From Promethearchaeota archaeon (lineage in GTDB: Archaea > Asgardarchaeota > Lokiarchaeia > Sigyniarchaeales > SOKP01): a DNA stretch of 16,923 nt. Shown one piece after another: positions 779 through 16,516 of this stretch; position 1 is the first letter of the stretch, and each line of letters starts with the position of its first letter. Under the pieces are notes generated by a model. The model made no database searches. It saw nothing but the letters and a program-made list of their open reading frames with translations, and had not been told where the DNA came from. The DNA lies in NCBI GenBank assembly GCA_048941285.1, contig JBHLNS010000062.1, positions 1 to 16,923 on the forward strand. The letters are read 5' to 3'. The position numbers and the translations under genes are program-made.

Positions 779-893
779 TTTTTTTATCACTTCTTATAAA
801 TTATATATTAATTTTTTATAAAACTTCTGATATTATTAATTATAATTTATCATTAAAATATAATTATCACTTTTCATATTTAAATATTACCGC

Positions 894-1289: not shown

Positions 1290-1305
1290 AAAAAATTTAT
1301 TAAAT
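1290..1305 (+). promoter_or_regulatory. Putative archaeal BRE/TATA promoter for the hdr cluster
   Basis: AAAAAA followed by TTTATTAA (1296-1303), about 50 nt upstream of the hdrC ATG. Confidence 0.45.
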
Positions 1306-1355
1306 CTCCATTATTTTCCTAACCAACTAGGTCGGATAATAAAAAACTTTTAGAC

Positions 1356-1853
1356 ATGTCTGTAATAAATTTTAAGTTTCGAAATGAGGTATTAAAACAT
1401 AATGCTTCTTTAAGCTACTGCTATCAATGTAGTACTTGTAGTGGCGGATGCCCTGTTGCTCTAATAACTCAAGGAAGTTATAATCCCAGAAAAATAATTG
1501 AAGAAGCTATTTTAGGTTTAGAAGATAAGTTGGTAGAAAAGCAGGATCCTAATCCTTGGCTTTGTTCAACTTGTCAAACTTGTGTTGAGCTATGTCCTCA
1601 AAAAGTCGAGATTACCGAAATTTTTACGTTAATAAAAAATAAGTGTTTCGATACTGGCAAAGTCCCTGAAGCTTTTGTTTCACAAGGGAGAGCTGTTTTA
1701 GAAAATGGAGTTGCACTTCCATACTCCAAAGCTATTATAACTAGGCGGGAGAAATTAGGACTTCCTTCGATAAAGACTGCTTCTGTTGATGAAATAAAAA
1801 AGATATTAAAAGAAACTAATTTTGAAACCAAAATTCCAAAGGAGGGAGCGTAA
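1356..1853 (+). CDS. hdrC: Heterodisulfide reductase subunit C
   Basis: Two [4Fe-4S] motifs, CYQCSTCSGGCP and WLCSTCQTCVELCP; C-terminal RREKLGLP; directly upstream of hdrB. Confidence 0.93.
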   Translation: MSVINFKFRNEVLKHNASLSYCYQCSTCSGGCPVALITQGSYNPRKIIEEAILGLEDKLVEKQDPNPWLCSTCQTCVELCPQKVEITEIFTLIKNKCFDTGKVPEAFVSQGRAVLENGVALPYSKAIITRREKLGLPSIKTASVDEIKKILKETNFETKIPKEGA

Positions 1854-1856
1854 ATT

Positions 1857-2720
1857 ATGTCATTTGATTTATTTTTAGGTTGTGTGATTCCTGCTAGACT
1901 TCCATTTTTAGAAGCATCTTCAAGAAAGGTATTTGAGAAGCTTGGTTTTAAACTTAATGATGTTTCAGGATTTTCTTGTTGTCCAGACCCAACAGGAATA
2001 GAACTTATAGATCATAAAACTTGGTTAGCTTTAGGAGCAAGAAATTTAAGTCTATCAAATAATAATGGTGGAATTATCTCGTTTTGTTCTGGTTGTGTTG
2101 AAACACTAAAAGGGGTAAATTACTTTATTAATAAAGATCATGAAGTAAAAGATGATGTAAATAGAATTCTAGAAAAAGTAGGAAAAAAATATGACGGAAC
2201 TACGGATGTGAAGCATTTTGCTCAAGTTCTGTATGAAAATCTTGATAAAGTGAGAGAAAATGTAGTTCACCCTTTAAATGGGTTTAGAGTAGCAGTTCAT
2301 TATGGATGCCACTATTTAAGACCTTCCGAAATTATTAATTGGGATGATCCTTTTAATCCTGTGACTATTGATGAAATAGTAAAAGCATTAGGGGCAGATA
2401 CCATAGATTATGAGATGAAAATGGAATGTTGCGGAAATCCACTTGATAAATCAGATAAAGAAATTTCTCTTCAAATGATTGGCAATAAATTCGAATCAAT
2501 TCAAGAATCTGGGGCGAACTGTGTTACTTTAGTATGCCCTGCTTGCTTTCAACAGTTTGATTTCAATCAGAAAGAATTAAGTAAAGAGAAAGAAGTTAAT
2601 TATGATTTCCCTGTTTTTTACCTCTCCGAATTAGTAGCTCTTGCATTTGGATTTAAGCCTGAGGAATTAGGATTGAATTTTCATCGCGTTCGGGCTACAA
2701 AATTATTAGAAGGATTTTAA
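1857..2720 (+). CDS. hdrB: Heterodisulfide reductase subunit B (two CCG domains)
   Basis: FLGC..SCCP..CSGC and HYGCH..ECCG..CPACFQQFD non-cubane cluster motifs; C-terminal GLNFH. Confidence 0.95.
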   Translation: MSFDLFLGCVIPARLPFLEASSRKVFEKLGFKLNDVSGFSCCPDPTGIELIDHKTWLALGARNLSLSNNNGGIISFCSGCVETLKGVNYFINKDHEVKDDVNRILEKVGKKYDGTTDVKHFAQVLYENLDKVRENVVHPLNGFRVAVHYGCHYLRPSEIINWDDPFNPVTIDEIVKALGADTIDYEMKMECCGNPLDKSDKEISLQMIGNKFESIQESGANCVTLVCPACFQQFDFNQKELSKEKEVNYDFPVFYLSELVALAFGFKPEELGLNFHRVRATKLLEGF

Positions 2721-2730
2721 AATTACAATT

Positions 2731-2746
2731 GAAAGATTTATTAAAT
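2731..2746 (+). promoter_or_regulatory. Putative internal BRE/TATA promoter
   Basis: GAAAGA-TTTATTAA about 30 nt upstream of ATG 2776. ATTTATTAAAT is identical to 1295-1305. Confidence 0.45.
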
Positions 2747-2775
2747 TTAAAAATTAAAAAAAGATTTGGAAAAAA

Positions 2776-3870
2776 ATGGGATTAGCAGATAAAAAAACAT
2801 TCGAAAATTTAAAGAGCGATGTAATCTCAGTTAATAGATGTTGTGCTTGCGGTGCTTGTATCGCATATTGTGAGAATCAAGCATTTAATGTTATTGAGAT
2901 GGATAATTATACCCCAAAGTTCAAGACAGATAAAAGTGTAGAGAATTGTAAGGAATGTGGGTATTGTTATTATATTTGTCCTCAAACTGAACCTTTATTA
3001 CAAAAATTAAAAGAAACTCACCTCGTTAAAGATGAACTTGGGAACATAATTGATATCTTTGCTGCGAAGACTACAAATAACAAATTACAAGAGGTTGGAC
3101 AAGATGGTGGTATTGTTTCGACAATCTTAACATATTTGTTTGATACTAATAATATTGACGCAGCAATAGTATCTGAATATGATGAGAATTTTAAACCTAT
3201 ACCCAAAATAATATATAGTAAGAATGAATTAGCGAAATCTGCAGGTACAAGATATTCAATATCATCTAATATCTTGCCTTTAAAGGATTTAACCCAAGTT
3301 GCAGAAGAAATAATATCTCATAAGAAAAGAATTTATGATAGTGATCAATTACGTATTGCATTTGTAGGAACACCTTGCCAATGTAGGGCAATTAGTAAAA
3401 TGAAACTTTTGCATATCAAACCTGCACATGTTATAAGTGTTGTAATTGGTTTGTTTTGTTTTGAAAATTTTGAATATAACAAATTGATTGAAATTTTGAC
3501 CTCTAAAACACAGATTAACCCTTCAAATATCAAAAAAACAAATATAAAGAAGAATTTTTTTGTTACATCAAAAGATAATGCTGTTAAAGAAGTTAATATT
3601 AAAGATCTTGACGAAGCGGTTAGAAATCATTGCCATGAATGTGATGAATTTGTAGGCAGGTTTTCAGATCTTAGTATTGGAGCATCCGGAGCCCCTAATG
3701 GTTATTCGATGATCCTTACTCGAACTGAAAAGGGTCGGAGTTTAATAGATTCACTACTCGCGACAGGCTATATTGAAAGGTATATTATCCCTGCCGATCA
3801 GATTTCAGAATGGCGACCAAAAAAAATTAATTGGTTAAAAAAAATGACTTCACTAAAAGTAAAGAAATAA
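2776..3870 (+). CDS. F420 hydrogenase/dehydrogenase beta-subunit family protein with N-terminal 2x[4Fe-4S] domain (FrhB/FpoF-like), copy 1
   Basis: CCACGACIAYC and CKECGYCYYICP, then FrhB motifs QDGGIVS, GTRY, VGTPCQ, IGLFCFENF, CHEC..SDLSIG. Confidence 0.9.
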   Translation: MGLADKKTFENLKSDVISVNRCCACGACIAYCENQAFNVIEMDNYTPKFKTDKSVENCKECGYCYYICPQTEPLLQKLKETHLVKDELGNIIDIFAAKTTNNKLQEVGQDGGIVSTILTYLFDTNNIDAAIVSEYDENFKPIPKIIYSKNELAKSAGTRYSISSNILPLKDLTQVAEEIISHKKRIYDSDQLRIAFVGTPCQCRAISKMKLLHIKPAHVISVVIGLFCFENFEYNKLIEILTSKTQINPSNIKKTNIKKNFFVTSKDNAVKEVNIKDLDEAVRNHCHECDEFVGRFSDLSIGASGAPNGYSMILTRTEKGRSLIDSLLATGYIERYIIPADQISEWRPKKINWLKKMTSLKVKK

Positions 3871-3887
3871 ATAAAATGGTGATTTGA

Positions 3888-5192
3888 ATGGTAGAAAACA
3901 TTAAAAGTGCTCTTGTTATTGGAGCAGGTATAGCAGGAATTCAAGCAGCTTTGGATTTAGGTGATATGGGAATAAAAGTTCACTTAATAGAAAAAAATCC
4001 TGTAATTGGAGGAAAAATGGCACAATTAGATAAGACATTTCCCACTTTGGATTGTTCAATTTGTATTTTAGCACCAAAACTGTCTGAATGTTATAGACAT
4101 CCAAATATAAGTCTTTATACTCTATCAGAAGTACAGAAGATAGAGGGTAAAAGTGGGGATTTTACAGTTGAAATCTTAAAACGAGCTCGTTATGTAAAGG
4201 AGGAGGTATGCACAAATTGTGGTGATTGTGCTAAAATTTGCCCAGTCCGAGGAGTTCCAAATTACTTTGATGCCAATTTGAAAAATATGGCAGCAGCGTA
4301 TATTCCTTTTCCTTCAGCAGTCCCTCCTGTCCATATTATTGATAAAAATTCATGTGTTTATTTAAATTATGGTATTTGTGGCTTGTGTGCTACGAATTGT
4401 GGTGCAGAAGCAATAGATTTTACTCAAAAAGATGAGATCTTAGAAATAGATAACGTTGGCGTCATAATTGTTGCACCGGGTTATGGTTTGATGGAGGATG
4501 TTAATCCTCTTACAAAATATGGTTATAAGAAATATAGAAATGTAGTAACTTCCTTAGAATTTGAAAGATTAATTTGTGCTTCTGGACCGCTTGAGGGGCA
4601 CTTAAAGAGGTTATCTGATGGTGTAGATCCCAAAAGGATTGCTTTTCTGCAATGTATTGGTTCTCGCTCCGACAGAGATCAAAAATATTGTTCTTCTATT
4701 TGCTGTATGTATTGTACAAAGGCAGCAATGATAGCGTATGAACATAACAATGATTTAGAATCATACGTATTTTACATTGATATGAGAGCGGGAGGGAAAG
4801 GATTTCAATCGTTTCTCCATAGAGGAGCTGATGAATATAATATTAAATATATTAAAAGCAAAGTTGCTCATATTGATATCGATGAGGATGAAAGTCCGAT
4901 TATAACTTATGAAGATTATGATACATCTAAAATTAAACAGATGAAAGTAGATCTAGCTGTTTTAGCAACATGCATTATTCCTTCTCAAGGGATTGAAAAA
5001 TTAGCAGAAGCGTTAGGAATCGAGTTAAATGAATATAATTTTATAAAAACTGATCCATTTTTTCCAGTAGAAACGAGTGTAGAAGGTATTTTCACATGTG
5101 GTTGTGCCCGTGAACCAATGGATATCCCTCGTTCTGTTGCTGAGGCGAGTGGGGCAGCGGCAAGAGCAGCGGAAGTAATTAAAGGAGGATAA
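3888..5192 (+). CDS. hdrA: HdrA-family flavoprotein, first half of a split double HdrA (FAD domain with inserted ferredoxin, no N- or C-terminal Fe-S domains)
   Basis: Starts at GAGIAGIQAALDL; MAQLDKTFPTLDCSIC; CTNCGDCAKICP; CIGSR..YCSSICCMY; ends after DIPRSVAEASGAAA. GGTGA RBS. Confidence 0.9.
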   Translation: MVENIKSALVIGAGIAGIQAALDLGDMGIKVHLIEKNPVIGGKMAQLDKTFPTLDCSICILAPKLSECYRHPNISLYTLSEVQKIEGKSGDFTVEILKRARYVKEEVCTNCGDCAKICPVRGVPNYFDANLKNMAAAYIPFPSAVPPVHIIDKNSCVYLNYGICGLCATNCGAEAIDFTQKDEILEIDNVGVIIVAPGYGLMEDVNPLTKYGYKKYRNVVTSLEFERLICASGPLEGHLKRLSDGVDPKRIAFLQCIGSRSDRDQKYCSSICCMYCTKAAMIAYEHNNDLESYVFYIDMRAGGKGFQSFLHRGADEYNIKYIKSKVAHIDIDEDESPIITYEDYDTSKIKQMKVDLAVLATCIIPSQGIEKLAEALGIELNEYNFIKTDPFFPVETSVEGIFTCGCAREPMDIPRSVAEASGAAARAAEVIKGG

Positions 5193-5199
5193 AGAAAAA

Positions 5200-6882
5200 A
5201 TGTCTAAAAAGTTAGAAGAGGAACCCCGAATAGGAGTCTTTGTTTGTAGTTGTGGAAGTAATATAGGTGGGTTAATAGATGTTAAAGAAGTTGCAGAATT
5301 TGCGAAAACTTTACCCTATGTTGTATTTACTGAGGATAATTTATATACATGCTCAGAAACAGGATTAGCCCAGATTAAAAATGGGATTAAAGAACACAAT
5401 TTGAATCGCGTGGTAGTTGCTTCATGCACTCCAAGAACTCACGAACCTCTCTTTCGTGATTGTATTAAGGATGAGGGTTTAAACGAGTATCTCTTTCAAT
5501 TTGTAAATATTCGTGATCAGTGTACATGGGTTCATATGAAATACCCTAGAGAAGCTCTTGAAAAAGCAAAAGAGGTAATTAGAATGGGAGTGGCAAAAGC
5601 CGCCAAACTTGAAGCACTTGAAAATATTGTTGTTGATGCAACTCGAACTGCAATGGTTATAGGTGGAGGAGTTGCTGGAATGACTGCTGCCCTTAGTTTA
5701 GCTAATCAAGGATTTGAGACTCATTTGGTAGAAAAAACGAATGAATTAGGTGGAAAGCTTAATATTATTAATAAGTTATTCCCTACAAGCCAAGATGCCT
5801 CAGAACTATTAGCTAGTTTGAAGAAAAGAGTGGATAGTAATCCTAACTTAACGGTATATACTTCAGCTAAAGTAAAGAACATTGGAGGATTTGTGGGTAA
5901 TTATGAAGTTGAAGTAGATCAAAATGGAAAAAGTATTGATTTAACAATAGGAGTTATCATAGTTGCTGTTGGAGCGTCTCTGCTAACCCCAACAGGAAAA
6001 TTTGGTTATGATGGTAATATTAGAATTACTCAATATGAATTAGAAAATAAATTAAGAAATAATAGAGTTAATGCTAAAGAAATCGTAATGATACAATGTG
6101 TTGGTGCTCGTAATGACGAGAGAGTATACTGCTCAAATGTATGTTGTATGACTGCATTAAAAAATGCCTTAATTATTCAAGAGAAAAATCCCGAAGCAAA
6201 TATAACAATCTTATTTAGAGATTTATATACTCCTGGAACTTATTATGAAAATTATTATAGAAGAGCAAGAGAAGCAGGCATTGTATTTTTGAGTTATAAA
6301 CTCGACAACGAGCCAATTGTAGGGGAGAATTCAATTAAAGTATTCAATGAATATATTGGAGAAGAGATAAGTATTCCTTACGATCTACTTGTGTTATCAA
6401 CACCACTAATCGCTAACGATGATAATAAGGAACTAGCTCAAATGCTTAAAGTCCCTTTAGAAGAAAACAAATTCTTTTTAGAAGCTCATGTAAAATTGCG
6501 CCCAATGGATTTTGCTACTGATGGTGTATTTATATGTGGGGCAGCAAAATGGCCTGTAGATATTACAGAATCCATAACTCAAGGATATGCAGCCGCCTCA
6601 AGGGCAAGTAGAATTATCTCTCATGATACGATAGAAGTAGAAGGTGCTACATCATTTCTCCCCGAATATAATAAAAATCTATGTTCTGGATGTGAAGTTT
6701 GCGTAACCATATGTCCATATAAAGCTATAAGCAAGAATGAAGATGACGAAATTGAGATAACGCAAGTGCTTTGTAAGGGTTGTGGAGTATGTGGTGCTAC
6801 TTGTACAAATCATGCAATAATTATCAGACATTTCACAGACGAGCAAATATTGTCTGAAATTTATGCTTTTGGAGGTAAATAA
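5200..6882 (+). CDS. hdrA: HdrA-family flavoprotein, second half (N-terminal Fe-S domain, FAD domain, C-terminal ferredoxin)
   Basis: RIGVFVCSCGSNI, ASCTPRTHE, NIRDQCTWVH, GGGVAG, CVGAR..YCSNVCC, CSGCEVCVTICP, CKGCGVCGATC. GGAGG RBS at 5184-5188. Confidence 0.9.
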   Translation: MSKKLEEEPRIGVFVCSCGSNIGGLIDVKEVAEFAKTLPYVVFTEDNLYTCSETGLAQIKNGIKEHNLNRVVVASCTPRTHEPLFRDCIKDEGLNEYLFQFVNIRDQCTWVHMKYPREALEKAKEVIRMGVAKAAKLEALENIVVDATRTAMVIGGGVAGMTAALSLANQGFETHLVEKTNELGGKLNIINKLFPTSQDASELLASLKKRVDSNPNLTVYTSAKVKNIGGFVGNYEVEVDQNGKSIDLTIGVIIVAVGASLLTPTGKFGYDGNIRITQYELENKLRNNRVNAKEIVMIQCVGARNDERVYCSNVCCMTALKNALIIQEKNPEANITILFRDLYTPGTYYENYYRRAREAGIVFLSYKLDNEPIVGENSIKVFNEYIGEEISIPYDLLVLSTPLIANDDNKELAQMLKVPLEENKFFLEAHVKLRPMDFATDGVFICGAAKWPVDITESITQGYAAASRASRIISHDTIEVEGATSFLPEYNKNLCSGCEVCVTICPYKAISKNEDDEIEITQVLCKGCGVCGATCTNHAIIIRHFTDEQILSEIYAFGGK

Positions 6883-6886
6883 TAAT

Positions 6887-7648
6887 ATGAGTTTTGAACC
6901 GAAAATTTTAGGATTCTTATGTAATTGGTGCTCCTATGCGGGAGCAGATTTAGCGGGAGTTAGTAGAATGCAGTACCCACCAAACATTAGGGTAATAAGA
7001 GTTATGTGTAGTGGGCGAGTAGACCCCAAATTTATTTTTGAAGCACTCCGAGTTGGAGCTGATGGAGTGATTGTTTTAGGATGCCACTTAGGAGATTGCC
7101 ATTATCTTGAGGGTAATTATGAAGCTGAAAAGAAATTTGATATGGTTAAAAAATTCTTAAAACTCATTGATTTTGATAATAGAGTAAGACTTGATTGGGT
7201 GTCTGCTTCAGAAGGAGCTAGATATGCCTCAGTTATTACAGAATTTACAAATCATATAAAATCATTAGGTCCATCTCCTGCTGGAGGAGATAATCCTGAT
7301 AAAAAAATACTTGAAAAATTAAGAGCCATTGAAGAAGCTGCTGGAAGTGATCGAATGAGAGCACTAGTAGGTAGGGAGAGAAAGATTATAGACCAAGAAA
7401 ATGTTTATGGAGAAAAAGTACCCATTGAAAAGTTTAATGAGATTTTTGAATCAGCAATTATTGAAGAATATGAGAGACATAGAATCTTAGTTTCTTTAGA
7501 AGAAGATTCAAAGTCTATTAAGGATTTAGCTCATGAATTAAAAATAGATCCAAGTATTGTTCTGGGACATATGGTAACTTTAAAAAGTCGAGGCCAAGTT
7601 GACTTTGGAGAATTTATTGGAATTACACCAATGTTTTATAAAATGTAG
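6887..7648 (+). CDS. mvhD: MvhD-family [2Fe-2S] protein with ~120-aa C-terminal extension ending in a winged-helix-like domain
   Basis: FLCNWCSYAGAD, RVMCSGRV, GCHLGDCHY. Start moved from 6863 to 6887 (MSFEPK) because GGAGGT lies at 6871-6876 and the paralog aligns from EPK. Confidence 0.9.
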   Translation: MSFEPKILGFLCNWCSYAGADLAGVSRMQYPPNIRVIRVMCSGRVDPKFIFEALRVGADGVIVLGCHLGDCHYLEGNYEAEKKFDMVKKFLKLIDFDNRVRLDWVSASEGARYASVITEFTNHIKSLGPSPAGGDNPDKKILEKLRAIEEAAGSDRMRALVGRERKIIDQENVYGEKVPIEKFNEIFESAIIEEYERHRILVSLEEDSKSIKDLAHELKIDPSIVLGHMVTLKSRGQVDFGEFIGITPMFYKM

Positions 7649-7659
7649 AGGGAAAAAAA

Positions 7660-10600
7660 ATGGAAAAAGTAGGATCTGTTATGGTTGTTGGCGCTGGTAT
7701 TGGAGGTTCTCAAGCAGCGCTCGATTTAGGTGATTCAGGTTATAAAGTTTACTTGATTGAGTCTACAACGAGTATAGGTGGAGTTATGGCTCAATTGGAT
7801 AAAACCTTTCCAACTAATGATTGCGCAATGTGTATTGTTAGCCCAAAGCTAGTAGAGACAGGAAGGCACCAGAATATTGATTTAAGTATTAACTGTGAGA
7901 TATTAAATGTCTCGGGAGAAGCAGGAAACTATACAGTAAATGTAAAGAAAAATTCTTTATATATAAATCCAGATAAATGTACAGGCTGTGGAGTATGCGG
8001 TAGAAATTGTCCTGTTGAGGCTATTGATTTATTCAATGAAGGTTTAGCTAAATATCATGCTACTTCTGTAAAATATCCGCAAGCTGTTCCACTTGTGTAC
8101 GCAATTAATAAAGATTATTGTATTGGTTGTGGAGTTTGTGCTGGTGTGTGTAAAGCAAAAGCAGTAGAATATGATAGAGAAAATCAAGTAGTAGACATTA
8201 ATGTTGGAGCAATTATTCTGGCTCCTGGTTTCGATGAATTTATCCCTCAAGAAGCCAACAAATATGGATATGGAAAATTTAAAAACGTAGTCACTTCGAT
8301 TGAATTTGAGCGTATATTAAGTGCAAGTGGTCCATATGCAGGTCGAGTTCTTCGCCCATCTGATGGGGATATTCCAGAAAAGGTTGCTTTCCTTCAATGT
8401 ATAGGGTCTCGAGATTACACAGGAGAAGGACAACCTTATTGTTCTTCAGTATGTTGTATGTATACAGCAAAGGAGGCTGTAATTGCTCATGAACATCAGC
8501 ATGAAGTAAAACCTACAATTTTTAGTATGGATATCAGAGCCTATGGGAAAGATTTTGATAAATACATTATTCGGGCTCAAGAAGAGTATGGTATTAGATA
8601 TATAAGAAGTAGAATATCCTCAGTAATGGAAGTACCAGAAACAAAGGATTTAAGACTTCGCTATGAGACTGAGGATGGGAAAGTTATTGAAGAAGATTAT
8701 AATATGGTAGTTTTAGGTGTCGGATTAAATCCTCCAGATGATGCAAAATATCTGGCTGAAAAATTTGGTATAGAATTGAATGAGTTTGGTTTTGCCAAAA
8801 CTGATATTTTTAATCCAGTTCAGACATCTAAACCCGGTATATATGCATGTGGTGCTTTTTCACAACCTAAAGATATCCCTGAAACTGTTACTCAAGCAAG
8901 TGCTGCAGCTGGATGCGTTAATCAACTTTTATATCAAAAGAGAGGAACTTTAATCACAGAAAAAACATTGCCCCCCGAAATATTTGTCGCTGGACAACCA
9001 CCACGTATCGGAGTTTTCATATGTCATTGTGGGATTAATATTGGTGGGTATGTAGATGTTCCAGAAGTAACTAAATATGCAAGCACTCTTCCAAATGTGG
9101 TTATGGCGGATCGTAATTTATATACTTGTTCTGCTGATACTCAAGGAATAATAAAAGAAAAAATTGAGGAGTATCACCTTAATCGAGTAATTGTGGCATC
9201 TTGTACTCCAAGAACACACGAACCATTATTCCAAGAAACGATTAGAGAAGCAGGATTGAATAGATATCTATTTCAAATGGCAAATATTAGAGATCAATGT
9301 TCTTGGGTTCATATGAACCAACCAGAAGAAGCTACTCAAAAAGCAAAAGATCTTGTAAGAATGGCTGTGAATAAAGCAAGACGAATAGCACCAATAGATA
9401 GAATTAAGTTAGGGGTAACAAAGAAAGCAATGGTAATCGGTGGAGGAATAAGCGGTATGACTGCTGCCCTGAATTTTGCGAGTCAAGAAATTGAGACCCA
9501 TTTAATTGAAAAAGAAGCAGAATTAGGAGGTTTTGCTAAACATATTTATCATACCCTCGAAGGAGGAGATGTTCAAGCCTACTTAAAAAACTTAATTGAA
9601 GAGGTTAAGTCCAATAAATTTATTCATGTCTATACTGATGCCGAAATAGAAAGTCTAAATGGATACATTGGAAATTTCAAAACTACAGTGATTCATAGTT
9701 CTAAAAAAGAAAAAGTTGAATTCGATCATGGAGTGGTAATTTTAGCTACAGGAGCTAAAGAATATGAACCAAAAGAGTTTCTCTATGGCCAAAATAAAAA
9801 TATCGTTCTACAATCAAAGTTTGAAGAAATGCTTAACACAGATAGCGTTTTAAAGAATAAGAAATCAGTAGTAATGATTCAGTGTGTCGGCTCTAGAAAT
9901 GATGAGCATCCGTATTGTAGTAAAATGTGTTGTGCAGAAGCTATTAAAAATGCATTATTATTAAAAAAATTAAATCCATCTACAGAAGTCACTATTTTAT
10001 TTCGAGATATTAGAACTTATGGATTTAAAGAAAAATATTACAGAAAAGCAAGAGAAGAGGGAGTCATTTTCCTTCGATATGATGAAAATAATCCTCCAGA
10101 AATTGTTGAAGAGGATTCATCATTAAATGTAAAAGTAAAAACTGCAAAAGCGGGAGACTTATCAATCCCCGCGGATTTATTAGTATTAAGTGCTGGAATT
10201 GTAGCATCTCACGAGGAAAATGAAGAACTTGCTAAAATGTTAAAAGTACCATTAAATGATGATAATTTTTATTTAGAAGCCCATGTCAAGCTCCGTCCTG
10301 TAGATTTCGCTACGGAAGGAATATTTGTTGCTGGACTAGCACACTGCCCAAAAACTATTGAGGATTCAATTTCACAAGCTAATGCTGCTGTTTCAAGAGC
10401 ATGTACGATTCTTTCAAAGGATGAAATTGAAGCAGAAGGGAAGACCGCAGTAATTGATATAAGTCGTTGTATCGGGTGTGGAATGTGTGTAGAGAATTGT
10501 GCATATAATGCAATCGAATTAATTGAAGATAGGCGTTTTGGATTAGTAGCATCAATTAATCAAGCATTATGTAAAGGATGTGGAGCCTGTAGTGGGAATT

Positions 10601-10677
10601 GTCGATGTAGTGCCATTGATATTTTAGGCTTTACAAGTGAACAAATATATGAAATGATAACAGGTCGTATAGGTTAA
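7660..10677 (+). CDS. hdrA: Large double-FAD HdrA-family protein (1005 aa; HdrL/BamE-like architecture)
   Basis: Two FAD-binding motifs (GAGIGG, GGGISG), two C.GSR..YCS..CC motifs, an inserted ferredoxin, an internal RIGVFICHCG domain starting near 9004, and a C-terminal ferredoxin. Collinear with 3888-5192 plus 5200-6882. Confidence 0.93.
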   Translation: MEKVGSVMVVGAGIGGSQAALDLGDSGYKVYLIESTTSIGGVMAQLDKTFPTNDCAMCIVSPKLVETGRHQNIDLSINCEILNVSGEAGNYTVNVKKNSLYINPDKCTGCGVCGRNCPVEAIDLFNEGLAKYHATSVKYPQAVPLVYAINKDYCIGCGVCAGVCKAKAVEYDRENQVVDINVGAIILAPGFDEFIPQEANKYGYGKFKNVVTSIEFERILSASGPYAGRVLRPSDGDIPEKVAFLQCIGSRDYTGEGQPYCSSVCCMYTAKEAVIAHEHQHEVKPTIFSMDIRAYGKDFDKYIIRAQEEYGIRYIRSRISSVMEVPETKDLRLRYETEDGKVIEEDYNMVVLGVGLNPPDDAKYLAEKFGIELNEFGFAKTDIFNPVQTSKPGIYACGAFSQPKDIPETVTQASAAAGCVNQLLYQKRGTLITEKTLPPEIFVAGQPPRIGVFICHCGINIGGYVDVPEVTKYASTLPNVVMADRNLYTCSADTQGIIKEKIEEYHLNRVIVASCTPRTHEPLFQETIREAGLNRYLFQMANIRDQCSWVHMNQPEEATQKAKDLVRMAVNKARRIAPIDRIKLGVTKKAMVIGGGISGMTAALNFASQEIETHLIEKEAELGGFAKHIYHTLEGGDVQAYLKNLIEEVKSNKFIHVYTDAEIESLNGYIGNFKTTVIHSSKKEKVEFDHGVVILATGAKEYEPKEFLYGQNKNIVLQSKFEEMLNTDSVLKNKKSVVMIQCVGSRNDEHPYCSKMCCAEAIKNALLLKKLNPSTEVTILFRDIRTYGFKEKYYRKAREEGVIFLRYDENNPPEIVEEDSSLNVKVKTAKAGDLSIPADLLVLSAGIVASHEENEELAKMLKVPLNDDNFYLEAHVKLRPVDFATEGIFVAGLAHCPKTIEDSISQANAAVSRACTILSKDEIEAEGKTAVIDISRCIGCGMCVENCAYNAIELIEDRRFGLVASINQALCKGCGACSGNCRCSAIDILGFTSEQIYEMITGRIG

Positions 10678-10695
10678 ATTATAAGAGGTTTAAAA

Positions 10696-11151
10696 ATGAC
10701 TGAAACAGTTTTAGAAGAAAAGAAAGTTGATGAGAAATGGGAACCAAAGATCATTGCATTCTTATGTAATTGGTGTTCTTACGCTGGTGCGGATTTGGCG
10801 GGAGTTAGTCGAATCCAATATCCTCCAAATATAAGAATAGTAAGAGTTCCTTGTTCTGGGCGGGTTAATCCCTATTTTATTATTAAAAGTTTAACAGATG
10901 GCTGGGATGGTGTTGTTGTTTCTGGATGTCATCCAGGAGATTGCCATTATATAAGCGGAAATCTCGTAGCAAGGAGACGATTTGCTATATTAAAGGAACT
11001 TCTTGAATTTTTTGGGATTGAACCTGGTAGGGTTAATTTTATGTGGGCCTCTGCCGCGGAAGGAGAGCGTTTTGCTACCCTAGTTAAGAAAGCTACGAAT
11101 ATTGTTAAAAAATTGGGCCCAAATACTAAATTTCAAAAGGAGTGGTGTTAA
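10696..11151 (+). CDS. mvhD: MvhD/FlxD [2Fe-2S] subunit
   Basis: FLCNWCSYAGAD, RVPCSGRV, GCHPGDCHY, WASAAEG; standard length; occupies the flxD position. Confidence 0.93.
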   Translation: MTETVLEEKKVDEKWEPKIIAFLCNWCSYAGADLAGVSRIQYPPNIRIVRVPCSGRVNPYFIIKSLTDGWDGVVVSGCHPGDCHYISGNLVARRRFAILKELLEFFGIEPGRVNFMWASAAEGERFATLVKKATNIVKKLGPNTKFQKEWC

Positions 11152-11153
11152 AT

Positions 11154-12164
11154 ATGGGGATTGAAACAGATAACAAGGTAATTACAGACTCAATAAGAGA
11201 AAACGCTAAGAAATTGCTTAGCGAAAATCAAGTTGATGTTATAATTGGCTATTCTCAGGGTACGGTACCCTTGAGCTCTACCCCAATTATTATAAGAAGA
11301 GAAGAGAATGTAGATAAATTAATCTGGAACAATCTATGTTATATTAATTTGGCAAGATATTTGGCTCCATTAATGCCCCAACTTTGCAATTCAGAAGCAA
11401 AACCTTTGAGAATTGGGATTGTCGCGAAAGGCTGTGTTGGGAGAGCTGTAAATCTTCTAGCTGCTGAAAAGCAAGTGAACATAGATAAAATTAAAATGAT
11501 TGGATTTAATTGTAATGGCATTGTGAACCGGAGTAAGATAGATCTAGAAATTGGTGAAAAAGAAATTCTTGATGTTTCAATATCTGGAGATGATATTGTA
11601 GTTAAAGGGAGAGATTGGGAGAAAAAATTTCCATATAATCAATATATTAATGAGCTCTGTAAAGTTTGTCAGATAAAAACTCCTTCTGCGACTGAAACAT
11701 CTTGCGTTGGTGCATGTCAAGAATTAAAATCGATTCATGATGAATTTTCAGATATTGCTGAATTTGAATCAAAATCTGCTGATGACAAATGGGCCTATAT
11801 TAAAGATGCTTTGCAAGTCTGTACTCTATGTTACAGTTGCAGACAGGCTTGTCCGGTATGCTATTGCAATCTTTGTTTTGTAGATCAAAATAAACCCATA
11901 TGGTTTGGTAAAACAACCCAATTTACAGATATATTAACTTTTCATTTAATTCGCGCTCAACATTTAGCAGGTCGATGCGTGGCATGTGGAGCTTGTTCAT
12001 CAGTATGTCCAGTTGGAATTGATCTGAATATTATAACAAGAAAGTTAGAAAAAATAGTAAACAATCGGTTTAATTACACTTCAGGACTAAATCCAGAAAC
12101 AGTTCCTCCAATGATGGACTTCAAGATGAGCGATGCAGAAGAATTTATGTTAGAAGAAGATTAA
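11154..12164 (+). CDS. flxC: FlxC-like Fe-S protein (related to FdhB/FrhB family)
   Basis: KGCVGRA, CTLCYSCRQACPVCYC, HLAGRCVACGACSSVCP; sits between mvhD and an AsrA-like gene. ATG 11154 preferred over GTG 11142, which falls within the GGAGTGGTG RBS-like stretch. Confidence 0.8.
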   Translation: MGIETDNKVITDSIRENAKKLLSENQVDVIIGYSQGTVPLSSTPIIIRREENVDKLIWNNLCYINLARYLAPLMPQLCNSEAKPLRIGIVAKGCVGRAVNLLAAEKQVNIDKIKMIGFNCNGIVNRSKIDLEIGEKEILDVSISGDDIVVKGRDWEKKFPYNQYINELCKVCQIKTPSATETSCVGACQELKSIHDEFSDIAEFESKSADDKWAYIKDALQVCTLCYSCRQACPVCYCNLCFVDQNKPIWFGKTTQFTDILTFHLIRAQHLAGRCVACGACSSVCPVGIDLNIITRKLEKIVNNRFNYTSGLNPETVPPMMDFKMSDAEEFMLEED

Positions 12165-12180
12165 ATAGGTGATTTAAAGA

Positions 12181-13242
12181 ATGGAACAAAAAATATTAAA
12201 AAAAGATCAAATTGGAAAATTATATAATGAGCTTGTAGGAGAATATAACATTTTCGCTCCTATTAATAAAAAGGGGAATATTGTTTTTGAAAAGATTGAA
12301 AATCCAGATGATATTGTTTTGGATTACTTGAATTCAAAAATACCACCAAAATCAGTTTTATTTCCCCAAAATGAAGTCTTATTTGAATACAGTTTGGATG
12401 AGAAAGATGTCGAAATTACTGATAGACAAGATTTAGATCAAAAAATTTTGATTTTTGGTATTCGTCCGTGTGATGCATACAGCTTTGAATTATTTGCCAA
12501 TTTCTTTTCTTTTCATGGAGATTGGAAGGATGAGATCTATTTAAAGAAAAAGGATAATACTACACTTATAGGAATTGGATGTAATAGTCCAAGATCTACG
12601 TGTTTTTGCACCTCCGTTGGTGGAAATCCTTTCAATCAGGAGAATATGGATGTTTTTCTTACCGATCTAGGAGAAACTTATTTAGTTGAGGGAATAAGTG
12701 ATAAAGGGAAAGCATTAGTTCAAAAGTTATCATGGCTTACTGATGCATCCAAAAATGACTTGAAAAAAGCCGAAGAATTAGCTAAACAAGCAGAAGATTC
12801 AATATCTACAGAAATAGATGTTGATAAAGTTGTTGAGAATTTATCAACTTGTTTTGAAGATCCTGTATGGGATGAAATTAGTGAAGCATGTATTGGTTGT
12901 GGTTCTTGTGCTTACTTATGTCCAACATGCACTTGTTTTGATGTTATTGATGAAACTGATCAATATAATAATCGTGGAAGAAGAATTAGAATATGGGATA
13001 CTTGCCAATCTTGTCTCTATACAATGGAAACAAGTGGACATAATCCTCGAGATACCAAAATTCAACGTTGTCGAAACCGAATCATGCATAAATTCAGCTA
13101 TTACCCTACAAATTATAATTTGCTGGGTTGTGTTGGATGCGGTAGATGCGTTTATGTTTGCCCTGCTAATAATGATCTTAGAGTAATATTAAATAAGATA
13201 AAAAAAATAGAAAAAAAAGAGGGTGAGAAAGTAGTTGTCTAA
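12181..13242 (+). CDS. flxB: FlxB-like Fe-S protein (AsrA/sulfhydrogenase beta family)
   Basis: GIRPCD, CFCTS, CIGCGSCAYLCPTCTCF, WDTC, HKF, CVGCGRCVYVCP. GGTGA RBS. Confidence 0.85.
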   Translation: MEQKILKKDQIGKLYNELVGEYNIFAPINKKGNIVFEKIENPDDIVLDYLNSKIPPKSVLFPQNEVLFEYSLDEKDVEITDRQDLDQKILIFGIRPCDAYSFELFANFFSFHGDWKDEIYLKKKDNTTLIGIGCNSPRSTCFCTSVGGNPFNQENMDVFLTDLGETYLVEGISDKGKALVQKLSWLTDASKNDLKKAEELAKQAEDSISTEIDVDKVVENLSTCFEDPVWDEISEACIGCGSCAYLCPTCTCFDVIDETDQYNNRGRRIRIWDTCQSCLYTMETSGHNPRDTKIQRCRNRIMHKFSYYPTNYNLLGCVGCGRCVYVCPANNDLRVILNKIKKIEKKEGEKVVV

Positions 13243-14074
13243 TCCTTACATACCTTATCTTACAAAAGTTAAATCAATAGTCTCTGAGAATAATGTAAAT
13301 GATATTAAGACTATTGAATTAGAGTTTAAGAAAGAAGAAGATTATAAGAATTTTGATTACATTCCAGGACAATTTGCTGAAATTAGCTTAATTGGAAAAG
13401 GTGAATGCCCAATAGGGATTGCATCATCTCCCACTGAGAAAGGAACTATCAAATTTACTATTAAAAAAATGGGTACTGTAACTTCTGGATTCCATAATTG
13501 TGAAATAGGAGACATAGTAGGAGTAAGAGGCCCTTGTGGAAATGGTTGGCCAGTAGAAGAGATGAAAGGTAAAAATATTGTAGTAATCGGAGGAGGTTTT
13601 GCATTTTCGACACTCCGATCACTCATAATTTATTTACTAGATGAGAAGCATAGAAAAGATTATGGTAATATAACAGTAATTTATGGAAATCGTGACCCCG
13701 GAGAAGTATTATATCGCGATATTTTAGATGAATGGAAAAAACGAGATGATATTAAGGTAGTTTTAACCATTGATCGTGAAGCAGAAGGATGGACAGAAGA
13801 AGTTGGATTTGTTGCGCCAATTGTCAAAAAAGTCGCTCCAAGTTCTGATAATGCAATTGCTGTGATCTGTGGACCACCAATAATGATTAAAACTACAATT
13901 GCGGTCATGGAAGAATTAAATTGGAAAGATAAACAAATTCTAAATAGTTTAGAGATGCGAATGAAGTGCGGAATTGGGAAATGTGGAAGGTGCAATATCG
14001 GAAATAAATTTGTATGTGTTGATGGTCCCGTCTTTTCTCTTGCTGAACTCAAAAAAATGCCAAATGAGTATTAA
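13235..14074 (+). CDS. flxA: FlxA-like FAD/NAD(P)-binding [2Fe-2S] oxidoreductase (AsrB/PyrK/sulfhydrogenase gamma family)
   Basis: PGQF, RGPCGNG, GGGFAFSTLRS, CGPPIM, MKCGIGKCGRC..VCVDGPVF. TTG start overlapping the upstream gene by 8 nt, with GAGGGTGA upstream. Confidence 0.88.
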   Translation: MSNPYIPYLTKVKSIVSENNVNDIKTIELEFKKEEDYKNFDYIPGQFAEISLIGKGECPIGIASSPTEKGTIKFTIKKMGTVTSGFHNCEIGDIVGVRGPCGNGWPVEEMKGKNIVVIGGGFAFSTLRSLIIYLLDEKHRKDYGNITVIYGNRDPGEVLYRDILDEWKKRDDIKVVLTIDREAEGWTEEVGFVAPIVKKVAPSSDNAIAVICGPPIMIKTTIAVMEELNWKDKQILNSLEMRMKCGIGKCGRCNIGNKFVCVDGPVFSLAELKKMPNEY

Positions 14075-14115
14075 ATTAAAAAAATAATTAAATCTAAAAA
14101 ATATTTGAAAAAGAG

Positions 14116-15234
14116 ATGAAAAAAGTGGCAGGTACCGTAGTTTCAAAAACATTTGAAGATTTGATTTTGGAAGTTCATGAAAAAGGATTATGTGGAGAAT
14201 GTGGTGGATGTGTAAGTTTTTGTTCAGCTGGAGAAATTAAAGCTATTGAAATGGGAGAGTCAGGCCCCCCTAAATACGTGAATAAAGATAAATGTCTTAA
14301 ATGTGGTATTTGCTATTACGTATGCCCCCAAACACATGTGTTAAATGAGCAGTTAAATAGAAAATATAATTATGAACCTCCTATAGGAAATCAATTAAAA
14401 GTAGCTTCATGTTATGCCACATCTGAAGAAATTAGGAAAAAAGCTACTGATGGTGGTGCTGTTACAGCGATTTTAAGTTATTTAATGGATAACAAGCTAA
14501 TTGATGGAGCCATAGTTTGTAAGAGAAAAGGACCATTTAATCGAGCTTCATTTTTAGCAACAACCAAAGAGGACTTAATCAAAGCTGCTGGATCTCATTT
14601 TGATTTTTCAAGCCAGGTGGTTGGATTGGAAAAATATAATACGTTTATACCCGCTAATATTGCTTTGAAAAAAGTCAGGAGTTCTGATCTATTAAATATT
14701 GCTGTTGTTGGTACCCCCTGTCAAATTAATTCAATTAGAAAAATGCAAACATTAAGTATATTACCCGCACATATTGTCAAGTATACTTTCGGTTTGTTTT
14801 GCTATCTGAATTTCTCATTTGGAGACGAAGAGAGGAAGAAACTTGAAGAAAGATTTGATTTTTCATTCGAGGATGTTGAAAGTATGAATGTTAGAGAAGA
14901 TCTTATATTATACTTTAAAAATGGGAATTCTCAAAAAATCACATTTCCAGAATTACACGATATCGGCCGTCCCGCTTGTTATGCATGCCCCGATTTTTCC
15001 AATATTTATGCGGATATTTCTTTTGGTGGCCTTGGTTCGCCAGAAAAATTAACTACTGCAATAATTAGGACACAGATTGGTGAAAAGGTTTATAATGATG
15101 CCCTAAATAAGGGTTATATTAAAGAACCAATTGAATTAAATAGACCAAATAATAAAATGGAAATCTTAGCGAAAGTTAGAGAATGGTCAAACAAAAAAAT
15201 TGAAAGAGCAGAAGATACACTAAAGAATGAATAG
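14116..15234 (+). CDS. F420 hydrogenase/dehydrogenase beta-subunit family protein with N-terminal 2x[4Fe-4S] domain (FrhB/FpoF-like), copy 2
   Basis: CGECGGCVSFC, CLKCGICYYVCPQT, TDGGAVT, VGTPCQ, GLFC..NF, CYAC..ADISFG. Clear paralog of 2776-3870. Confidence 0.9.
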   Translation: MKKVAGTVVSKTFEDLILEVHEKGLCGECGGCVSFCSAGEIKAIEMGESGPPKYVNKDKCLKCGICYYVCPQTHVLNEQLNRKYNYEPPIGNQLKVASCYATSEEIRKKATDGGAVTAILSYLMDNKLIDGAIVCKRKGPFNRASFLATTKEDLIKAAGSHFDFSSQVVGLEKYNTFIPANIALKKVRSSDLLNIAVVGTPCQINSIRKMQTLSILPAHIVKYTFGLFCYLNFSFGDEERKKLEERFDFSFEDVESMNVREDLILYFKNGNSQKITFPELHDIGRPACYACPDFSNIYADISFGGLGSPEKLTTAIIRTQIGEKVYNDALNKGYIKEPIELNRPNNKMEILAKVREWSNKKIERAEDTLKNE

Positions 15235-15247
15235 ATATAACGCAACT

Positions 15248-15300
15248 TGATTTATTTAATCATATTTTCCTTATCTTAATTTTTATTTTTATGATATTTT
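15248..15300 (+). terminator. Oligo-T rich probable terminator of the cluster
   Basis: TTTTTATTTTT at 15280-15290 downstream of the last + strand gene, facing convergent genes. Confidence 0.35.
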
Positions 15301-15541: not shown

Positions 15542-16516
15542 CTATAGGTCAAAGATGTTTCCTGTATTGTAGATGGTAGTATCTAGATCAAGCAAAATTT
15601 GCCCACCTGAGGCTATTTCTACAGCATAATTTATAGCTTCTAATACTCTATTCATCATAAAATCGTAAGCAGTAAAACAATCTTTAAGTTGTTGCATCTG
15701 ATCCCCCGCATAACATTGAGAGATTGCAGGAATTAGCTCTGGGATGAAATCTTGACTTATCATTAACTCTTCGGCATCAATATTAGTCTCTTTTGCCAAG
15801 GTAAAGGGATTATATACATCCATCTGGGCAAACATGACTCTACAGACAAATATAGACGCTTTTATCTCTTTCATGATAAATTTAATTCTATTTTTATCGT
15901 CAAGGAATTTTTTAAAGGTAATCGCATTGATGATATCCTCGTTGGTTATAGTATCTGATGTATCGATTAATTCACTTACTCTTTCTGACATCCTTTTCGA
16001 AGATAGCATGAGTTTAAGATTCATTTCATTTTTCTTATAATAATCCTCATAAAAAGCAGAGAGAAAAGTATGCGCTCCCAGATGCCCTTGATCTTTAGAA
16101 TTGTCCAACCTATAATAATTATCTTTAAATTTATCCATAAAATTCTTAATAATTAAAAATTTTAGCTTGAGTCTATGTAACGCAAAAAACAAACACAATC
16201 TTGTTTTAGTATATGCTTCCACATTTCCCATTCTGAATCTGTCATGATGATCCCTTGCATACATTACGATAGGCTTTAATTTGCTTACTACAACATCAAT
16301 AAAATATTCAATGATATGTTCCAGGGGGTGACACTCTATTACATGAAATTTCTCTATTAATTTTTGGCTGGTCGGTTGACTTTGGGGCAATTCCCTGATA
16401 TCATCATAATTATAATATTCAAGAAACAAAGAAGTTAGTGCTTCCATTTCCAAAACTGTTCGACAGGGAATAAAAACCTTGTTCAAGTCATATAATATTG
16501 TTCCACTTTCTGGCAT
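15542..16516 (-). CDS. Hypothetical protein, 324 aa, probably soluble and alpha-helical
   Basis: Long uninterrupted ORF in AT-rich DNA with protein-like composition; no motif recognised; AT-rich TATA-like box about 25-30 nt upstream. Confidence 0.85.
   Translation of the reverse strand: MPESGTILYDLNKVFIPCRTVLEMEALTSLFLEYYNYDDIRELPQSQPTSQKLIEKFHVIECHPLEHIIEYFIDVVVSKLKPIVMYARDHHDRFRMGNVEAYTKTRLCLFFALHRLKLKFLIIKNFMDKFKDNYYRLDNSKDQGHLGAHTFLSAFYEDYYKKNEMNLKLMLSSKRMSERVSELIDTSDTITNEDIINAITFKKFLDDKNRIKFIMKEIKASIFVCRVMFAQMDVYNPFTLAKETNIDAEELMISQDFIPELIPAISQCYAGDQMQQLKDCFTAYDFMMNRVLEAINYAVEIASGGQILLDLDTTIYNTGNIFDL

Follow-up and report, generated by a model that had tools for sequence, protein, structure and literature searches.

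Results

A Candidate Hydrogenase-Independent Flx-Hdr Operon

We analyzed a stretch of 16,923 nt, here called the window, which is the entire contig C3 of a Loki-type Promethearchaeota metagenome-assembled genome (MAG; 3.55 Mb, 101 contigs, 94.1% complete, 3.4% contaminated) and has a GC content of 0.29-0.37. Between positions 1356 and 15234 the list of open reading frames (ORFs) contains 12 genes, all on the forward strand. On balance, we lean toward the view that these 12 genes form one operon, and that it encodes a hydrogenase-independent bifurcating or confurcating enzyme of the Flx-Hdr type, built on a core of double "type II" HdrA. The core would consist of two type II HdrA pseudo-dimers, a MvhD connector after each, and one HdrBC; electron pairs would be split or merged at flavin. 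Published work with a PubMed Central (PMC) identifier is cited for what its accessible text states.

The tight co-oriented packing supports a single operon. No gap exceeds 55 nt, and the consecutive spacings are 3, 55, 17, 7, -20, 11, 18, -10, 16, -8 and 41 nt. The order is hdrC, hdrB, frhB1, a split double HdrA, a long MvhD, a fused double HdrA, flxD, flxC, flxB, flxA and frhB2, as follows (domain E-values from Pfam; Fd, ferredoxin):

1356..1853 (+), hdrC-like, 165 amino acids; Fer4_8 6e-11
1857..2720 (+), hdrB-like, 287 amino acids; CCG 3.9e-24 in 2 stretches
2776..3870 (+), frhB1, Fd + FrhB, 364 amino acids; FrhB_FdhB_C 4e-39, FrhB_N 1.2e-19, Fer4
3888..5192 (+), hdrA N-type half, 434 amino acids; NF040770 profile positions 138-563
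5200..6882 (+), hdrA C-type half, 560 amino acids; NF040770 profile positions 1-235 plus later part
6863..7648 (+), long MvhD, 261 amino acids; FlpD 4.6e-53, HTH_5 1.7e-4
7660..10677 (+), fused double HdrA, 1005 amino acids; N-type and C-type half by alignment to 5odc_A
10696..11151 (+), flxD, short MvhD, 151 amino acids; FlpD (PF02662) 2.4e-53
11142..12164 (+), flxC, 340 amino acids, 19 Cys; Fer4 families, FdhB/ElpB-like fold in its AlphaFold2 (AF2) model
12181..13242 (+), flxB, sulfhydrogenase-beta/AsrA-like Fe-S protein, 353 amino acids; Fer4_22 1.4e-29
13235..14074 (+), flxA, 279 amino acids; NAD_binding_1 2.8e-15, DHODB_Fe-S_bind 1.6e-10, FAD_binding_6 3e-6
14116..15234 (+), frhB2, Fd + FrhB, 372 amino acids; FrhB_FdhB_C 7e-34

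Pfam and NCBIfam searches with the 12 co-oriented ORFs bear out the gene content claimed in the original prediction, which was made from the letters of the window. Its description of the cluster as hydrogenase-free also holds: none of the 14 window ORFs of at least 80 amino acids scanned with Pfam has a NiFe hydrogenase (PF00374), Oxidored_q6 or molybdopterin domain, and the window has no hydrogenase or formate dehydrogenase gene, including any FdhA/ElpA homologue. The source had been called a probable Asgard archaeon, in agreement with the nearest relatives of the fused HdrA, which come from Promethearchaeota/Promethearchaeia MAGs (76-94% identity).

Two other kinds of Hdr system were considered and rejected. 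A membrane-bound or HdrDE-type system would call for HdrD, HdrE or a membrane subunit, and a sulfur-oxidizing sHdr system for a second hdrC2B2 set or a gene for a lipoate-binding protein; the window has none of these.

Two Copies of an Asymmetric HdrA Pseudo-Dimer

The three HdrA-type polypeptides (434, 560 and 1005 amino acids) carry 4 GxGxxG dinucleotide motifs, and all four HdrA halves keep both GxGxxG and the CxGSR...YCSxxCC cluster motif. When the fused protein is placed on HdrA of M. thermolithotrophicus (5odc_A), its residues 13-370 correspond to 152-509, 447-604 to 3-160, and 854-1003 to 501-649. In alignments with the fused protein, the 434 amino acid HdrA shares 46% identity with the N half and the 560 amino acid HdrA 50% with the C half. 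The two N-type halves have the equivalent of Cys197 (Cys58) and an inserted ferredoxin domain, and they lack the N-terminal domain as well as a ferredoxin domain at the C terminus. The two C-type halves have the N-terminal domain plus a ferredoxin domain at the C terminus and lack both the Cys197 equivalent and the inserted ferredoxin domain.

Judged from this domain anatomy, the cluster holds two copies of one asymmetric type II pseudo-dimer, one split and one fused, with a MvhD gene after each. The features that define type II HdrA, two thioredoxin-reductase/FAD domains with a complementary N-terminal domain and Cys197, are all present. The original prediction had counted four HdrA-type FAD domains in three polypeptides; the count is right, and the three are not independent HdrAs, being one split and one fused copy. 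The fused HdrA scores below the cut-offs of both NCBIfam models (971.7 versus 1100 for NF040770; 773 versus 1400 for NF041778). The HdrA-MvhD fusion characteristic of HdrA2B2C2 from Methanosarcina is absent, MvhD being a separate gene in both units; such fusions occur in a related locus (L031, 1153 amino acids) and on contig C67 of the same genome.

Each pseudo-dimer would offer one complete electron path, not two, because the arm domains are found in one half only, and Cys197 and the inserted ferredoxin domain in the other half only. In the C-type half, the N-terminal and C-terminal domains would make up a mobile arm reaching MvhD; the low-potential outlet would be the ferredoxin domain inserted in the N-type half. 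The electron path of the methanogen HdrA enzyme is summarized in Chadwick et al. 2022 (PMC9012536), where complementary tandem and fused HdrAs are described for anaerobic methanotrophic archaea (ANME). Fused double HdrAs are reported in nine of ten Lokiarchaeota assemblies (PMC11237513), and the name "type II" for double HdrA comes from PMC12054007, which states that the class is without biochemistry.

The two MvhD proteins are 57% identical over 129 amino acids. The long MvhD, whose relatives start at residue 9, consists of a MvhD domain and a C-terminal winged-helix extension of approximately 120 amino acids; the tail alone gives a Pfam match to HTH_5 (7.9e-5) and weakly resembles ArsR/SmtB winged helices (E 8e-3). 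In the AF2 model (pLDDT 88.5), the N domain matches 5odc_D, 8rvu_F and 7bkb_F, and it is 54-60% identical to solved MvhD/ElpC chains. The long form is seen repeatedly between double HdrA genes of Asgard archaea, Bathyarchaeia and Thermoplasmata (84 near-full-length matches in 79 loci). Its tail, helical followed by winged-helix, is confidently modeled and is present in no solved Hdr complex.

HdrBC and the Disulfide Site

In HdrC, both CxxCxxCxxxC motifs are intact (Cys 22, 25, 28, 32 and Cys 70, 73, 76, 80), and HdrB has the two CX31-39CCX35-36CXXC motifs of methanogen HdrABC (Cys 9, 41, 42, 77, 80 and Cys 151, 191, 192, 227, 230). The scores stay below the NCBIfam cut-offs (109.9 bits versus 160 for HdrC, TIGR03290; 286.3 versus 345.15 for HdrB, TIGR03288). 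With both CCG cluster motifs intact, HdrBC would reduce or oxidize some disulfide/thiol pair. The original prediction proposed a check for mcr and coenzyme M (CoM) genes elsewhere in the genome. McrA (PF02249) and ComA (PF02679) are not found in the 94.1%-complete MAG, nor is DsrC. The means of producing CoM-S-S-CoB, the heterodisulfide of methanogens, are thus not found in the genome, and DsrC is excluded as disulfide substrate because its gene is not found there.

The NAD(P)H Module

FlxA matches the gamma subunit of Pyrococcus sulfhydrogenase I (PDB 9nez_C, 1.1e-49), and its Cys 245, 250, 253 and 261 form the [2Fe-2S] site; FlxB matches the beta subunit (PDB 9nez_B, 2.2e-42). By homology, which does not tell NADH from NADPH, we identify FlxA and FlxB as a putative NAD(P)H module. 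FlxA would bind NAD(P)H and FAD, FlxB would relay electrons, and FlxC would adapt the module to FlxD and HdrA.

FlxC has no NCBIfam match. It has four invariant Cys at FrhB-type cluster positions and a weak FrhB_FdhB_C Pfam signal (E 0.0057). Its AF2 model (pLDDT 76, pTM 0.81) matches 7bkb_E (E 4.1e-15, TMq 0.65) and 8rvu_E (E 8.9e-14). Because of this fold match to FdhB and ElpB, we assign FlxC as a predicted FdhB/ElpB-fold adaptor with a C-terminal ferredoxin-like part. Within the genome, flxB and flxC are found in the window only. Across the phylum, FlxC homologues (E <=1e-20) are present in 82 of 301 sampled genomes; they occur in 53 of the 68 from the window's own family and 20 of the 28 from one other family.

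In gene arrangement and domain content, the cluster shows the hallmarks of FlxABCD-HdrABC. The hdrCBA and flxDCBA genes are adjacent and co-oriented, with frhB1, hdrA', hdrA'', mvhD and frhB2 as extra genes; FlxA has the FAD and NAD(P)H domains and the [2Fe-2S] site; and FlxD is a MvhD homologue (PF02662 2.4e-53). Gene order and Flx domains thus support the link to hdrCBA-flxDCBA that had been claimed. In Desulfovibrio vulgaris and other anaerobes, FlxABCD-HdrABC serves as an NADH dehydrogenase/heterodisulfide reductase (PMC4287179). Asgard archaea are reported to possess it (Imachi 2020, PMC7015854), and the accessible text of a preprint by Orsi et al. suggests it for a Lokiarchaeon.

FrhB Proteins and F420

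The two FrhB proteins are 31% identical to each other, and both have an N-terminal 2x[4Fe-4S] domain followed by FrhB_N/FrhB_C with the Cys ligands. The best PDB match of both is 8rja_E (1.9e-51 for FrhB1, followed by 8riu_B with 6.1e-39; 1.3e-42 for FrhB2). 8RIU and 8RJA contain the F420-reductase subunits of the CODH and Fwd complexes of Ca. Ethanoperedens thermophilum, which reduce F420 (PMC11493965). Across 26 sequences, the FrhB motifs DGG and GTPCQ and Cys 228, 286 and 289 do not vary. In the same genome, CofD (303.8 bits), CofE (276.5), CofG (361.3) and the F420-dependent Mtd (356.7) all score over their cut-offs, so that the organism plausibly makes and uses F420. These genes, together with the F420 reductase subunits as best structural relatives of FrhB, make F420 a plausible cofactor of the cluster, as had been predicted.

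Alternatively, the FrhB-like proteins might not react with F420 at all. They would then be flavin/Fe-S transfer subunits or subunits of a ferredoxin-dependent reductase, and the cluster would encode an ordinary NAD(P)H:disulfide/ferredoxin Flx-Hdr with additional Fe-S wiring. The FrhB fold does occur in non-F420 enzymes such as HCAR (5dqr is among the FlxC and FrhB2 matches), both proteins score under the NCBIfam cut-offs for FrhB and FpoF, and FlxC is itself of FrhB fold with almost no FrhB sequence signal. However, the best solved relatives share the complete Fd + FrhB architecture and have demonstrated F420 reduction, the genome has the F420 genes named above, and the FrhB motifs are invariant. 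We therefore consider a cluster with F420-inactive FrhB proteins improbable.

We modeled a complex of the 434 amino acid HdrA half (HdrAn), residues 1-142 of the long MvhD and, as scored partner, FrhB1, with an alignment supplied for each. The score was 0.79 in all three runs, and the best of three controls gave 0.00. In calibration, 58 of 80 solved complexes attained this value, as did 2 of 110 mismatched pairs; the set-up there was unlike ours, which had custom alignments and three chains. At least 89% of contacts are common to the runs, with a partner pLDDT of at least 84. Confident contacts run from FrhB1 residues 31-35 and 59-66 (ferredoxin domain) and 184-218 to HdrAn residues 117-123 and 155-170 (inserted ferredoxin domain); no contacts with MvhD are named. 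The model thus supports binding of FrhB1 to the inserted ferredoxin domain of HdrA.

In methanogen complexes, the polyferredoxin MvhB binds the same inserted domain (PMC12350162, Extended Data Fig. 7 legend). Since FrhB1 would occupy this ferredoxin/polyferredoxin dock, F420 may replace ferredoxin there and not add to it. HdrA-MvhD-FrhB triads have been proposed as Fd:F420 oxidoreductases in Korarchaeia (PMC10667645), and the present genome has stand-alone triads of an N-type HdrA, MvhD and FrhB on contigs C4, C6 and C43.

One Core with Swappable Modules

Relatives of the 1005 amino acid HdrA were sought in one genome per prokaryote species, which gave 567 stretches; 79 loci were kept and searched by tblastn with 14 window proteins. 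Further relatives of the fused HdrA, at 52-57% identity, come from Bathyarchaeia, Thermoplasmata/Methanomassiliicoccales, Jordarchaeia and a few bacterial MAGs.

The loci fall into types that differ in what accompanies the HdrA genes. In the hydrogenase type (L046, L050), the order is hdrA', hdrA'', long mvhD, fused hdrA, short mvhD, hdrC, hdrB, mvhG, mvhA. A paralogous Loki cluster has frhB on the opposite strand, hdrCB, the split HdrA, the long MvhD, and the fused HdrA with the short MvhD, and ends in metV-metF in six of six loci (L026, L027, L028, L031, L032, L079). Together with the Flx type, these loci show that one core of two double HdrAs, two MvhDs and HdrBC takes MvhGA, MetVF or FlxCBA. 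As read from gene order, FlxCBA sits in the slot behind the short MvhD where relatives carry MvhGA or MetVF. The present genome also has hdrA-mvhD-hdrCB-metVF on contig C31, which carries two metVF pairs. Mer (TIGR03555) is not over its cut-off in this genome and Mtd is present, which fits a replacement of Mer by MetVF in this lineage.

Could the window encode the Hdr/MvhD part of a hydrogenase-dependent complex, with H2 as substrate or product? The original prediction proposed to look for mvhAG elsewhere in the genome, where approximately 20 HdrA-like stretches lie on nine other contigs. There are two NiFe large subunits only, on C67 and C88. C88 carries a Vhu-type pair (VhuA-like, 475 bits; VhuG-like, 250 bits) with an Lrp-type regulator gene upstream and no MvhD beside it. 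The C67 large subunit scores about equally as ShyA (159.9 bits) and VhuA (151.3 bits); directly upstream of its mvhG and mvhA lies an 849 amino acid HdrA-MvhD fusion with an N-terminal DUF7347 (L083:7862-10411; G000 C67). Neither is an F420-reducing hydrogenase by score (frhA model: 142.5 and 121.9 bits versus a cut-off of 392.5). One or both MvhDs of the window could thus dock the C88 hydrogenase, which lacks an adjacent MvhD; a partnership of this sort is one that the original prediction itself counted against its claim. The HdrA core does adjoin hydrogenase genes in 28 of the 79 related loci, e.g., L046 and L050. However, all 28 are non-Loki, and none of the 27 flx-bearing loci has a NiFe gene within approximately 10 kb. 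In the window, flxCBA directly follows the short MvhD, the slot of mvhGA or metVF elsewhere, and each pseudo-dimer has one arm only. The C67 hydrogenase has its own HdrA-MvhD fusion, and since C88 ends approximately 250 nt beyond the large subunit, its own MvhD may be merely unassembled. We regard docking of a hydrogenase as very unlikely, C88 being the candidate partner.

Several other genes in these regions deserve mention. C67 further carries a 1037 amino acid double HdrA, a MvhD and a FrhB that is 60% identical to frhB1. VhuG-like proteins of approximately 440 amino acids are encoded on two more contigs (G000 C36:58846-60162 and C54:31271-32629, with 54% and 41% identity to the small subunit on C88). 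Neither has a large-subunit match beside it, and the divergent C54 copy adjoins an hdrCB-hdrA-mvhD cluster.

One Enzyme or Two

The complete 12-gene order with both flanking genes is found in five loci (L001, L002, L004, L005, L033; 77-95% identity). In the 16 loci that can be observed from hdrC past flxA, both frhB genes are present in six, frhB1 only in four, frhB2 only in five and none in one (L023), so that FrhB is near-constant (15 of 16) but variable in position.

Two of these loci have further peculiarities. In L033 (5114-6211), frhB1 shares 63% identity with the window copy, as against 89-95% for its neighbors hdrC, hdrB and hdrA', which suggests exchange of the frhB1 gene between lineages. 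L023, the complete locus without FrhB, has a 467 amino acid pyridine nucleotide-disulfide oxidoreductase after flxA (16629-18032; Pyr_redox_2 1.6e-72 plus dimerization domain), and a short-chain dehydrogenase likewise lies downstream of flxA.

Variation of this kind raises the possibility of two separable enzymes encoded side by side. The first, HdrCB-FrhB1-HdrA'A''-MvhD(long), would be a disulfide reductase linked to F420H2, similar in kind to Elp-Hdr or HdrA2B2C2. The second, HdrA(fused)-FlxDCBA(-FrhB2), would be linked to NAD(P)H, would lack an HdrBC of its own, and could be an Nfn-like F420/NAD/ferredoxin transhydrogenase. The two frhB genes are lost independently, and L011 lacks hdrCB yet keeps frhB1, both HdrAs and flxDCBA; from this, the parts may serve separable complexes. 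An extra unit of fused HdrA and long MvhD is inserted in L018, L023, L029 and L039, so the units are modular. Moreover, a single fused HdrA stands alongside Flx genes in L060, L077 and L078, and the stand-alone triads resemble a kind proposed elsewhere to work as an Fd:F420 oxidoreductase. On the other hand, the pairing of split HdrA, long MvhD, fused HdrA and short MvhD is kept in Loki, Bathyarchaeia, Thermoplasmata and the MetVF paralogue, which argues for one core; all 12 genes lie within gaps of at most 55 nt; and RNA contigs span the boundary of the two units (7598-7865), which is weak evidence. We consider two separate enzymes possible but doubtful.

The RNA evidence comes from two sediment metatranscriptome runs (shares 0.07 and 0.05) with short near-identical contigs. 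These cover parts of hdrB, frhB1, hdrAn, hdrAc and hdrAF; two of them span the mvhD1/hdrAF (7598-7865) and hdrAF/flxD (10600-10805) junctions, a weak hint of expression and of read-through across junctions. The contigs leave 11301-15255 (flxC-frhB2) uncovered, but the runs were chosen by window positions 1300-11200 and are uninformative on the expression of these genes; contigs of this kind cannot show transcript ends.

Our preferred reading, a single operon for one Flx-Hdr-type enzyme, draws on observed gene content, conservation, domain anatomy, fold likeness and module swapping. Besides the independent variation of the frhB genes, the unpartnered C88 hydrogenase, the FrhB relatives outside the F420 enzymes and the FrhB signal of FlxC, the following weighs against it. 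No Hdr or FrhB protein of the cluster reaches an NCBIfam equivalog cut-off, and the genome search leaves HdrBC without CoM-S-S-CoB or DsrC. The high score of the FrhB1 model may partly reflect likeness to known interfaces, since MvhB docks at the inserted ferredoxin domain in solved complexes. The RNA contigs are few, short and of low depth, and the libraries may contain DNA. Finally, the assembly of the 12 products into one complex, the cofactors used and the direction of the reaction are what we infer.

If the preferred reading holds, the Fd-FrhB proteins would be F420 oxidoreductase modules that dock, by their ferredoxin domain, on the one inserted in the N-type HdrA half. The net effect would be to link NAD(P)H, F420 and a thiol/disulfide couple, and ferredoxin, whose involvement is likewise conditional, would possibly join at the second pseudo-dimer. 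A host without an F420-reducing hydrogenase could in this way adjust its F420 redox state from NAD(P)H, or vice versa. The original interpretation is borne out in part, with one hub for all four carriers as its conjectural side. It is tempting to go further and to imagine one supercomplex with a FrhB F420 port at the HdrA ferredoxin outlet. NAD(P)H would enter via Flx and be bifurcated to disulfide and F420, or, without net disulfide turnover, the supercomplex would carry out an Nfn-like F420/NAD/ferredoxin interconversion. We hold this more specific proposal to be unlikely.

Neighboring Genes

Upstream of the cluster, an 89 amino acid ORF (521-790, reverse strand) contains 8 Cys among residues 1-41; Pfam gives no match to it, even at E 1. 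Loki relatives keep this ORF upstream of the operon, in one orientation or the other, with two to three tandem copies in L013 and L018, and it could encode a small metal-binding protein or an operon-linked regulator. Downstream, a convergent ORF of 324 amino acids (15542-16516, reverse strand) belongs to no Pfam family and is 73-89% identical in Loki loci. Three small ORFs inside flxB and flxA (12818-13186, forward; 13357-13626 and 13681-14052, reverse) were taken as chance. The window has no match to Rfam families.

Discussion

Models of the origin of eukaryotes build on how Asgard archaea conduct their redox and syntrophic metabolism. Many Asgard Hdr-like genes are without a known substrate because Mcr is lacking. 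The operon described here is common in the family of the window and gives a testable wiring: NAD(P)H via Flx, F420 via FrhB, and some disulfide at HdrB. The swapping of MvhGA, MetVF and FlxCBA on one core offers a handle on the type II HdrA class, which has no biochemistry according to PMC12054007. If the supercomplex reading were true, it would supply the missing F420 redox control in Asgard archaea that have an F420-dependent Wood-Ljungdahl branch and no F420-reducing hydrogenase. The double type II HdrA core, which is widespread and takes swappable modules, would in that case gain its first assigned function as well.

Comparison with Known Systems

FlxABCD-HdrABC is among the systems nearest to this cluster. 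Common to both are the order hdrC-hdrB-...-hdrA-flxD-flxC-flxB-flxA, the absence of a hydrogenase, a HdrB with two CCG motifs, an FAD- and NAD(P)-binding [2Fe-2S] FlxA, Fe-S proteins FlxB and FlxC, and a MvhD-like FlxD. In contrast, the window has a two-halved type II HdrA, present twice (split and fused), a long MvhD with a winged-helix tail in addition to the short one, two Fd-FrhB genes, and an archaeal host with F420.

Elp-Hdr of Methanothermobacter marburgensis, (ElpABC-HdrABC)2, is purified and solved, F420H2-fed and hydrogenase-free (8RVU, 8RVV, 8RVY; PMC12350162), and an F420H2-fed, hydrogenase-free HdrA2B2C2 is covered in a review (PMC6019823). With Elp-Hdr the cluster would share a hydrogenase-free bifurcating Hdr; FlxC matches the ElpB fold, and the N domain of the long MvhD is 55% identical to ElpC. 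The donor arm of Elp-Hdr pairs an FdhB/FrhB-fold subunit with a MvhD homologue and takes F420H2 as donor (PMC12350162). Here, by contrast, the FdhB-fold FlxC belongs with an NAD(P)H module, the ferredoxin domain of FrhB1 and FrhB2 is N-terminal, and FrhB1 is modeled on the inserted ferredoxin domain and not on the MvhD arm. Moreover, the window has no ElpA/FdhA homologue, its HdrA is of the asymmetric type II whereas that of Elp-Hdr is a symmetric dimer, and, unlike in the Elp-Hdr host, Mcr is not found in the genome and there is no CoM-S-S-CoB.

The complementary HdrAs of ANME likewise have two thioredoxin-reductase domains in complementary halves and occur in fused and split forms. In ANME HdrA3/4 the half with the N-terminal domain comes first (PMC9012536), whereas the Cys197-bearing half comes first here. 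Like the window, the MetFV-HdrCBA-MvhD type of methylene-THF reductase from Moorella thermoacetica (PMC9012536) has MvhD, HdrBC and a fused double HdrA whose halves are complementary; in place of MetVF, the window has FlxCBA. The F420-reductase subunits of Ca. Ethanoperedens share an anchoring N-terminal 2x[4Fe-4S] domain followed by a FrhB-type FAD/[4Fe-4S] domain; their partner is CODH or Fwd, and the predicted partner here is HdrA.

The combined architecture had been put forward as one without a characterized counterpart. That claim was too strong, with Asgard FlxABCD-HdrABC (Imachi 2020), tandem and fused HdrAs (Chadwick et al. 2022; PMC11237513; PMC12054007) and Elp-Hdr all in print. A context of Flx and FrhB is not among the features described for type II HdrA in the accessible text of PMC9012536, PMC12054007 and PMC11237513. 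Our literature searches gave no description of Flx, two type II HdrAs and Fd-FrhB together, a cluster that the supplements of Imachi 2020 and Chadwick et al. 2022 may list. Every part of the cluster is of a known kind; the novelty, as far as these searches reach, lies in a variation of how the parts are wired.

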